Of a DNA stretch of 64,000 nucleotides, positions 58,100 through 58,340 are shown piece after piece. This DNA is from Escherichia coli (GTDB taxonomy: Bacteria > Pseudomonadota > Gammaproteobacteria > Enterobacterales > Enterobacteriaceae). Location: NCBI RefSeq assembly GCF_003334385.1, contig NZ_QOWN01000002.1; one strand, written 5' to 3'. The notes beneath the pieces were generated by a model, which saw only the letters and a list, made by a program, of their open reading frames with translations, was not told the origin of the DNA and searched no databases. The stretch's first letter is position 1. Every line of letters starts with the position of its first letter. The position numbers and the translations under genes are program-made.

Positions 58100-58340
58100 G
58101 GTTACCAGAATCAGGGCAGTCTTAGGAGTGGCGGCATATAGCCAAAATAACGTGAGCGGGTCCATGCCCGACAGAATCGTTACTCTCTCCCATCCGGACT
58201 CTAACCGTCGGCCCCGGAATTACACCGGATCTGCTGTCCTTTGAGTTCGCACCCAAAGCGCTCGCGGGCTTTCAACTGAGTTGATTTACCGCCGGTGGGG
58301 AATTTCGCCCCGCCCTGAGAATAAGCGGATTCACTATAAC
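58100..58340 (-). promoter_or_regulatory. FMN riboswitch (RFN element) in the ribB leader
   Basis: Minus-strand leader contains AGGGCGGGGCGAAATTCCCCACCGGCGG...GGATGGGAGAGTAACGATTCTGTCGGGCATGGACCCGCTCACG, matching the conserved RFN aptamer as I recall it; lies directly upstream of ribB. Confidence 0.65.

Follow-up and report, generated by a model that had tools for sequence, protein, structure and literature searches.

The ribB locus and its surroundings

The DNA analyzed here, called the window in the following, is a stretch of 64,000 nt from Escherichia coli, in which the leader of ribB on the minus strand was the feature of interest. ribB is an essential gene, and its riboswitch, validated as a target for antibacterials (roseoflavin, ribocil), also serves as a model system for riboswitches that act co-transcriptionally and are coupled to Rho. 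The regulated gene encodes 3,4-dihydroxy-2-butanone-4-phosphate synthase (217 amino acids); a first-pass annotation of the window had attributed the leader to ribB, and the product of the downstream ORF indeed matches TIGR00506 at 287.7 bits, with a cutoff of 177.45. The divergent neighboring ORF (58448-58738) is UbiK, and in the RefSeq gene order ubiK lies divergently upstream of the riboswitch, with ribB and then yqiD and zupT downstream. A terminator-like hairpin begins 31 nt past the ribB stop codon and is followed by a T-run (57390..57359), from which we take ribB to be monocistronic. yqiD, downstream of ribB on the minus strand (56989-57159), is a small ORF of 56 amino acids with a hydrophobic N terminus, annotated as YqiD in RefSeq, and matched no NCBIfam family. 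On the plus strand, a fimbrial usher ORF next to ygiL (59624-62137) is intact in the window (837 amino acids) and annotated as an incomplete pseudogene in strain 720632 (L001 1-768). Coordinates of the features at the locus are collected in Table 1.

The region 57300-58900 was matched in all 5426 complete E. coli genomes of RefSeq. The 306-nt leader was present in 5426 of 5426, with at least 99% identity in 5391, and it is identical to that of the K-12 strain NCM3722. About 1000 genomes covered less than 80% of the 1.6-kb query, implying that the flanks of ribB are variable and the leader is not. Insertion sequences were found near ribB in at least seven of the listed E. coli genomes, namely IS1 in genomes H1 to H6 and IS5/ISKpn26 in H7. 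An insertion within the riboswitch itself was considered for H1 and rejected, given that its IS1 sits in the ribB-yqiD spacer, immediately beyond the stop codon of ribB, and leaves the riboswitch intact.

Table 1. Features of the ribB leader and locus, with the basis of each assignment
Feature	Coordinates	Strand	Basis
Putative sigma-70 promoter of the ribB leader	58333..58361	-	Read by eye, inferred
Probable transcription start, +1 G	58326	-	Fit to published numbering
FMN (RFN) aptamer, helices P1-P6	58178..58326	-	RF00050, PGAP, covariation in P3, P4 and P5 extensions (19 leaders)
P1 strands	5' strand 58324-58317; 3' strand 58187-58180	-	
HP1 hairpin (CGGGC/ACCCG), leader positions 157-170	58157..58170	-	3 of 5 pairs changed on both sides; 89.5% of cells paired
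CGUUAUUUU, positions 175-183, 3' strand of the published anti*-P1 helix	58144..58152	-	PMC11571811 and MFE
Long hairpin of anti*-P1 and HP1, terminator-like in appearance	58144-58186; alignment A1 columns 184-275	-	
Small variable hairpin	58143-58133	-	
CUGCCCUGA, positions 208-216	58111..58119	-	Complementarity read from the sequence
Candidate Rho-utilization region, C-rich/G-poor, positions 161-230	58097..58166	-	Composition scan
Sequestering stem-loop (5' arm 58114-58102, 3' arm 58079-58066)	58066..58114	-	Folds and 19-leader alignment
ribB CDS, regulated gene	57421..58074	-	ORF list, TIGR00506, RefSeq
Intrinsic terminator-like hairpin and U-run	57359..57390	-	Terminator scan: 13-pair stem, then T-run
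IS1-bearing locus of genome H1	L122 1815-2512 (NZ_CM176589.1)		

Identification of the FMN aptamer

An Rfam 15 covariance-model scan of the whole window identified a 149-nt match to RF00050 on the minus strand, which covers model positions 1-138 of 138 and reaches 120.9 bits (gathering score, 66.2; E = 1.1e-27). The first-pass annotation had claimed an RFN/FMN aptamer on this strand within 58100-58340 and had named such a scan as the appropriate check; with a score nearly twice the family threshold, the claim is confirmed. All RF00050 consensus helices of the P1-P6 junction are present, and every upper-case consensus position is matched. One pair, the third of P4, was flagged as non-canonical, and it is non-canonical in all 19 Enterobacterales leaders that we compared. 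A chance origin of the match is excluded. The 3' end of the aptamer lies 103 nt from ribB on the same strand, and RefSeq/PGAP labels the identical 149 nt upstream of ribB "FMN riboswitch", in agreement with the earlier description of the element as a known one. We found no evidence against the identification and regard it as practically certain that the element is the FMN riboswitch of the E. coli ribB leader (sroG region), acting in cis as an OFF switch. This riboswitch already has a RefSeq annotation and detailed experimental studies behind it, and the window adds nothing new to it; it matters here only as the correct annotation of conserved non-coding sequence before ribB.

Three details of the first-pass annotation require correction. 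The string that it had quoted as the aptamer core is absent as written, with no match when up to three mismatches are allowed, and two bases (GA) had been omitted from it. Its true version, GGATGGGAGAGAGTAACGATTCTGTCGGGCATGGACCCGC, which begins GGATGGGAGAGAGTAACG..., has a single occurrence on the minus strand, at 58195..58156. The leading 18 nt of this string, GGAUGGGAGAGAGUAACG, do belong to the aptamer, where they make up J6/1 and the P1 3' strand, but from there on the string is part of the expression platform and forms its first hairpin. Likewise, the interval 58100-58340 spans the aptamer completely but cuts the expression platform short, leaving out the region 58066-58090 with the Shine-Dalgarno sequence, the AUG, and the sequestering stem's 3' arm. 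The assertion that the locus holds RNA structure for which the ORF track has no explanation is accurate, as the riboswitch accounts for 250 nt of conserved non-coding sequence.

Two sets of ORFs overlapping the leader were considered and set aside. A leader peptide could in principle be encoded by a 46-amino-acid ORF (58165..58025, minus strand), whose AUG lies in the loop of HP1 and which crosses the ribB start out of frame. Its AUG is missing in several relatives, e.g., Enterobacter BIGb0383 and Ag1, and the ORF is probably a chance occurrence. Plus-strand ORFs over the aptamer (48 amino acids, 58098-58244) are unsupported and antisense to the conserved structured RNA.

Putative promoter and probable transcription start

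The putative sigma-70 promoter of the leader comprises a -35 element TTGCTG (58361-58356), a 17-nt spacer, and a -10 element TATAGT (58338-58333), and lies 7 nt upstream of the presumed +1. The TATAGT element is kept in the leaders of relatives. A consensus promoter scan reported no site here, the 8/12 consensus match falling below the scan threshold. Transcription probably starts at 58326, a position that rests on its fit to published numbering: it puts the published C175, G176, and U181 on c58152, g58151, and t58146, and the published pause at 247-249 on the U-run right before ACCAUG. In this numbering, the ribB AUG occupies leader positions 253-255 (58074-58072).

Helices and folds of the expression platform

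In the 3' direction from P1, the platform consists of HP1, CGUUAUUUU, the small variable hairpin, ACUCCUAAGACUGCCCUGAUUCUGGUAAC, the Shine-Dalgarno sequence GUGAGG, and UUACCAUGAAUCAG. With its end 11 nt before U181, a published pause site, HP1 has the geometry of a hairpin-stabilized pause and may be a pause hairpin. CGUUAUUUU includes the pause sites 175 and 181 and forms the published anti*-P1 helix by pairing 58152-58144 with 58186-58178 (positions 141-149 × 175-183), a helix present in the unconstrained minimum free energy (MFE) structure.

The anti*-P1 helix and HP1 together form a long hairpin that resembles a terminator. In this hairpin, HP1 is framed by UAACG...CGUUA, and the U-run behind it is UUUU in E. 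coli and U7 in Citrobacter, Enterobacter, and Lelliottia; the published pauses at 175 and 181 also lie here, so that the switch might be read as controlling an intrinsic terminator in the style of Bacillus subtilis ribD, with the U-run at 58150-58144. However, the terminator scan found no minus-strand site between the transcription start and the AUG, and the U-run is itself part of a helix. Furthermore, a terminator at positions 141-183 would have the wrong regulatory sign, since the hairpin needs the 3' strand of P1 and thus belongs to the FMN-free state. The leader does not carry an intrinsic-terminator platform of the B. subtilis ribD type, and we consider control of such a terminator extremely improbable.

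Sequestration of the ribB start site, the reading that we prefer, finds its structural counterpart further downstream. CUGAUUCUGGUAA and UUACCAUGAAUCAG form a sequestering stem of 13 bp in which the start codon is paired, and its loop holds a weaker inner hairpin with the Shine-Dalgarno GUGAGG (58090-58085). CUGCCCUGA, which overlaps the 5' arm of this stem, is complementary over 9 bp to UCAGGGCGG (58318-58310, positions 9-17), i.e., to J1/2 together with the last bases of the P1 5' strand. The sequestering stem and this anti-P1 pairing are therefore mutually exclusive. From this complementarity, UCAGGGCGG × CUGCCCUGA is a candidate for the anti-P1/anti-sequester helix of the FMN-free state. 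The published ON state, in which both ends of the aptamer are held in alternative helices, agrees with the 9-bp candidate helix (PMC11571811).

The unconstrained MFE structure of the leader (-88.9 kcal/mol) has a misfolded aptamer, and the fold with the aptamer enforced reaches -72.7 kcal/mol. Folding also yields a GGGAG × CUCCU helix. As the sequestering stem forms in the unconstrained and the aptamer-enforced folds alike, nearest-neighbor energies alone fail to reproduce the switch. The fold stability of the whole leader was no better than that of shuffled sequences (z = -0.50), and fold energy was set aside as evidence for this multi-state RNA.

Conservation and covariation in relatives

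The 15-mer AGTCCGGATGGGAGA was searched in one genome per species, which returned 120 loci. In 19 of these, the same strand carries a RibB homolog (62-99% identity) whose start lies about 110-230 nt further downstream; the genera represented are Escherichia (E. albertii), Citrobacter, Enterobacter, Lelliottia, Pantoea, Acerihabitans, Yersinia, Photorhabdus, Providencia, Arsenophonus, and Parashewanella. RF00050 matches were obtained in all 18 orthologous ribB leaders that were scanned (81-122 bits). At one further locus (L078), two matches to the 15-mer lie 264 nt apart and might have indicated tandem FMN aptamers, but no RF00050 hit was found there; both copies (1609-1623 and 1873-1887, plus strand) lie inside a WD40-repeat ORF and encode YSPDGR. 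In view of these two chance copies, the 15-mer alone is not specific.

Nineteen leaders, that of the window and 18 from other Enterobacterales, were aligned (alignment A1). For the OFF structure, composed of aptamer and platform, 94.6% of cells were paired, compared to 40-54% in slid controls, and 18 pairs were changed on both sides, a number reached by none of 500 shuffles. These both-side changes cluster in HP1 and toward the outside of the aptamer helices P3, P4, and P5, the latter three accounting for 13 of the 18. The sequestering stem showed another pattern: its 13 pairs are all paired in 19/19 leaders, and 12 of the 13 are invariant. This invariance reaches the third bases of codons 2 and 3 in ribB (AAU CAG), and later codons vary freely. 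The stem is thus a case of strong conservation at synonymous sites without covariation. The inner Shine-Dalgarno hairpin was paired in 81.8% of cells.

The helices of the ON state were paired in 93.4% of cells, with 37-51% in slid controls. The 9-bp anti-P1 helix reached 99.4% across the 19 leaders, with one-sided changes at three pairs and two-sided changes at none, and the anti*-P1 helix was paired in 83-92% of cells across relatives, again with one-sided changes only. Examples of such one-sided changes are U209->C opposite G16 and A216->G opposite U9. Like the sequestering stem, the anti-P1 helix is nearly invariant, and neither shows compensatory double changes. Because changes in the ON-state helices outside HP1 are one-sided only, the comparative data are compatible with the published alternative structures and do not prove them. 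Taken as a whole, the comparison offers a small independent confirmation of the published models, with an invariant sequestering stem, a covarying HP1, and compatible ON helices.

Two of the relatives' loci carry other RNA elements. In Yersinia artesiana (L054 1832-1938, minus strand), a match to RF02770 (Ysr224 sRNA; 96.4 bits) lies on the strand of ribB, about 35 nt beyond its stop codon, which suggests that Ysr224 is a 3'-UTR-derived sRNA at the Yersinia ribB locus. The FMN-ribB leader of Parashewanella hymeniacidonis is more divergent than the others (81.2 bits, with long aptamer insertions), and a Moco/tungsten riboswitch (RF01055; 92.3 bits) was found at the same locus (L120 14260-14417, plus strand).

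Model of FMN-dependent control of ribB

The model outlined here combines aptamer membership, genomic context, conservation, and helix compatibility across relatives, as obtained in this analysis, with FMN binding, translational repression, Rho dependence, and pausing, as taken from the literature. Binding of FMN by the 149-nt aptamer would lock P1 and thereby release the conserved CUGCCCUGAUUCUGGUAA to pair with UUACCAUGAAUCAG. In the resulting stem-loop, the start codon would be held in the 13-bp stem and the Shine-Dalgarno sequence in the weaker inner hairpin, and translation initiation would be blocked. According to published work, the FMN-bound state also exposes a C-rich stretch to Rho, leading to early transcription termination. 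Without FMN, the 3' strand of P1 would be taken by CGUUAUUUU in the anti*-P1 helix, and the 5' strand of P1 together with J1/2 by CUGCCCUGA in the anti-P1/anti-sequester helix. The ribosome-binding site would then be open, and riboflavin synthesis would continue.

Experiments on the same RNA fit this picture. Nascent transcripts were reported to sense FMN at nanomolar concentrations, with a Kswitch of 23 nM at EC-175, and FMN protects P1 and the sequestering stem, including positions 215-227, from RNase H; the pauses at 175/181 and 247-249 delimit the transcriptional window in which sensing takes place (PMC11571811). A rho mutant no longer shows control of ribB, for which a Rho termination score of 3.1 was reported (PMC5499598), and FMN binding has been proposed to expose rut sites in the riboswitch and the expression platform (PMC11571811, PMC5499598). 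The leader contains a C-rich, G-poor stretch at positions 161-230, upstream of the AUG, in which the C/G ratio is up to 2.0; we infer that this stretch is a reasonable candidate for the rut region.

Whether Rho acts on the leader directly bears on the alternative that the switch is purely translational and that Rho termination follows indirectly when ribB mRNA goes untranslated, a route proposed for thiM. The sequestering stem is the most conserved part of the platform, down to the synonymous positions noted above, as such a switch would lead one to expect, and the indirect route has been described for another E. coli riboswitch (Bastet et al., PMC5499598). However, Bastet et al. and Eschbach et al. 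both cite Hollands et al. 2012 for direct, conformation-dependent access of Rho at ribB (PMC5499598, PMC11571811), and the C-rich, G-poor stretch lies inside the leader, ahead of the AUG. A translation-only switch thus appears unlikely, although it is the least improbable of the alternatives weighed here. We favor combined control, by sequestration of the start site and, probably, direct action of Rho.

The leader has also been reported to give rise to SroG RNA (2003 report), and this raises the question of whether a trans-acting sRNA, with targets of its own or as an FMN buffer, is the main product of the locus and cis-control of ribB secondary. For SroG no target or phenotype is known, and prematurely ended leaders are expected as by-products of Rho termination. 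Moreover, conservation outside the aptamer falls precisely on the segments that pair with P1 or with the ribosome-binding site of ribB, as cis-regulation predicts. We therefore consider a primary role in trans very unlikely. Slightly less remote, but still improbable, is some further role of HP1, the U-run, or SroG next to cis-control, be it as a stable FMN-bound fragment in trans or an FMN buffer, or with the conserved U7 hairpin of other Enterobacterales as a second, Rho-independent checkpoint.

Relation to other riboswitches

The element described here and the E. coli K-12 ribB FMN riboswitch/sroG occupy the same locus, with the leader 100% identical (NCM3722) and the numbering and neighboring genes the same, and we detected no difference between them. 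The ribD (ribDEAHT) riboswitch of B. subtilis shares with it the RF00050 aptamer, the ligand FMN, and OFF logic on riboflavin genes. In B. subtilis ribD, however, FMN stabilizes an intrinsic terminator according to the literature, whereas E. coli ribB relies on sequestration of the Shine-Dalgarno sequence and AUG, and on Rho. The TPP riboswitches of E. coli thiM and thiC resemble that of ribB in that they turn off translation in enterobacteria, form anti-P1 helices, have regulatory pauses close to the start codon, and show control of mRNA levels linked to Rho. They differ from ribB in aptamer family and ligand, and Rho termination is described as indirect at thiM but direct at ribB (PMC5499598).

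Other RNA family matches in the window

The same stretch of DNA contains a full-length match to RF02753 (ES173 sRNA) at 30097-30160 on the plus strand (99.0 bits; gathering score, 90). Matches to RF02564 (naRNA4/CssrE) were found at 13200-13276 on both strands and at 24246-24316 on the minus strand, with 92.6, 60.1, and 61.0 bits; these are GC-rich paired-hairpin units, which we presume to be intergenic repeats of the REP/BIME type.
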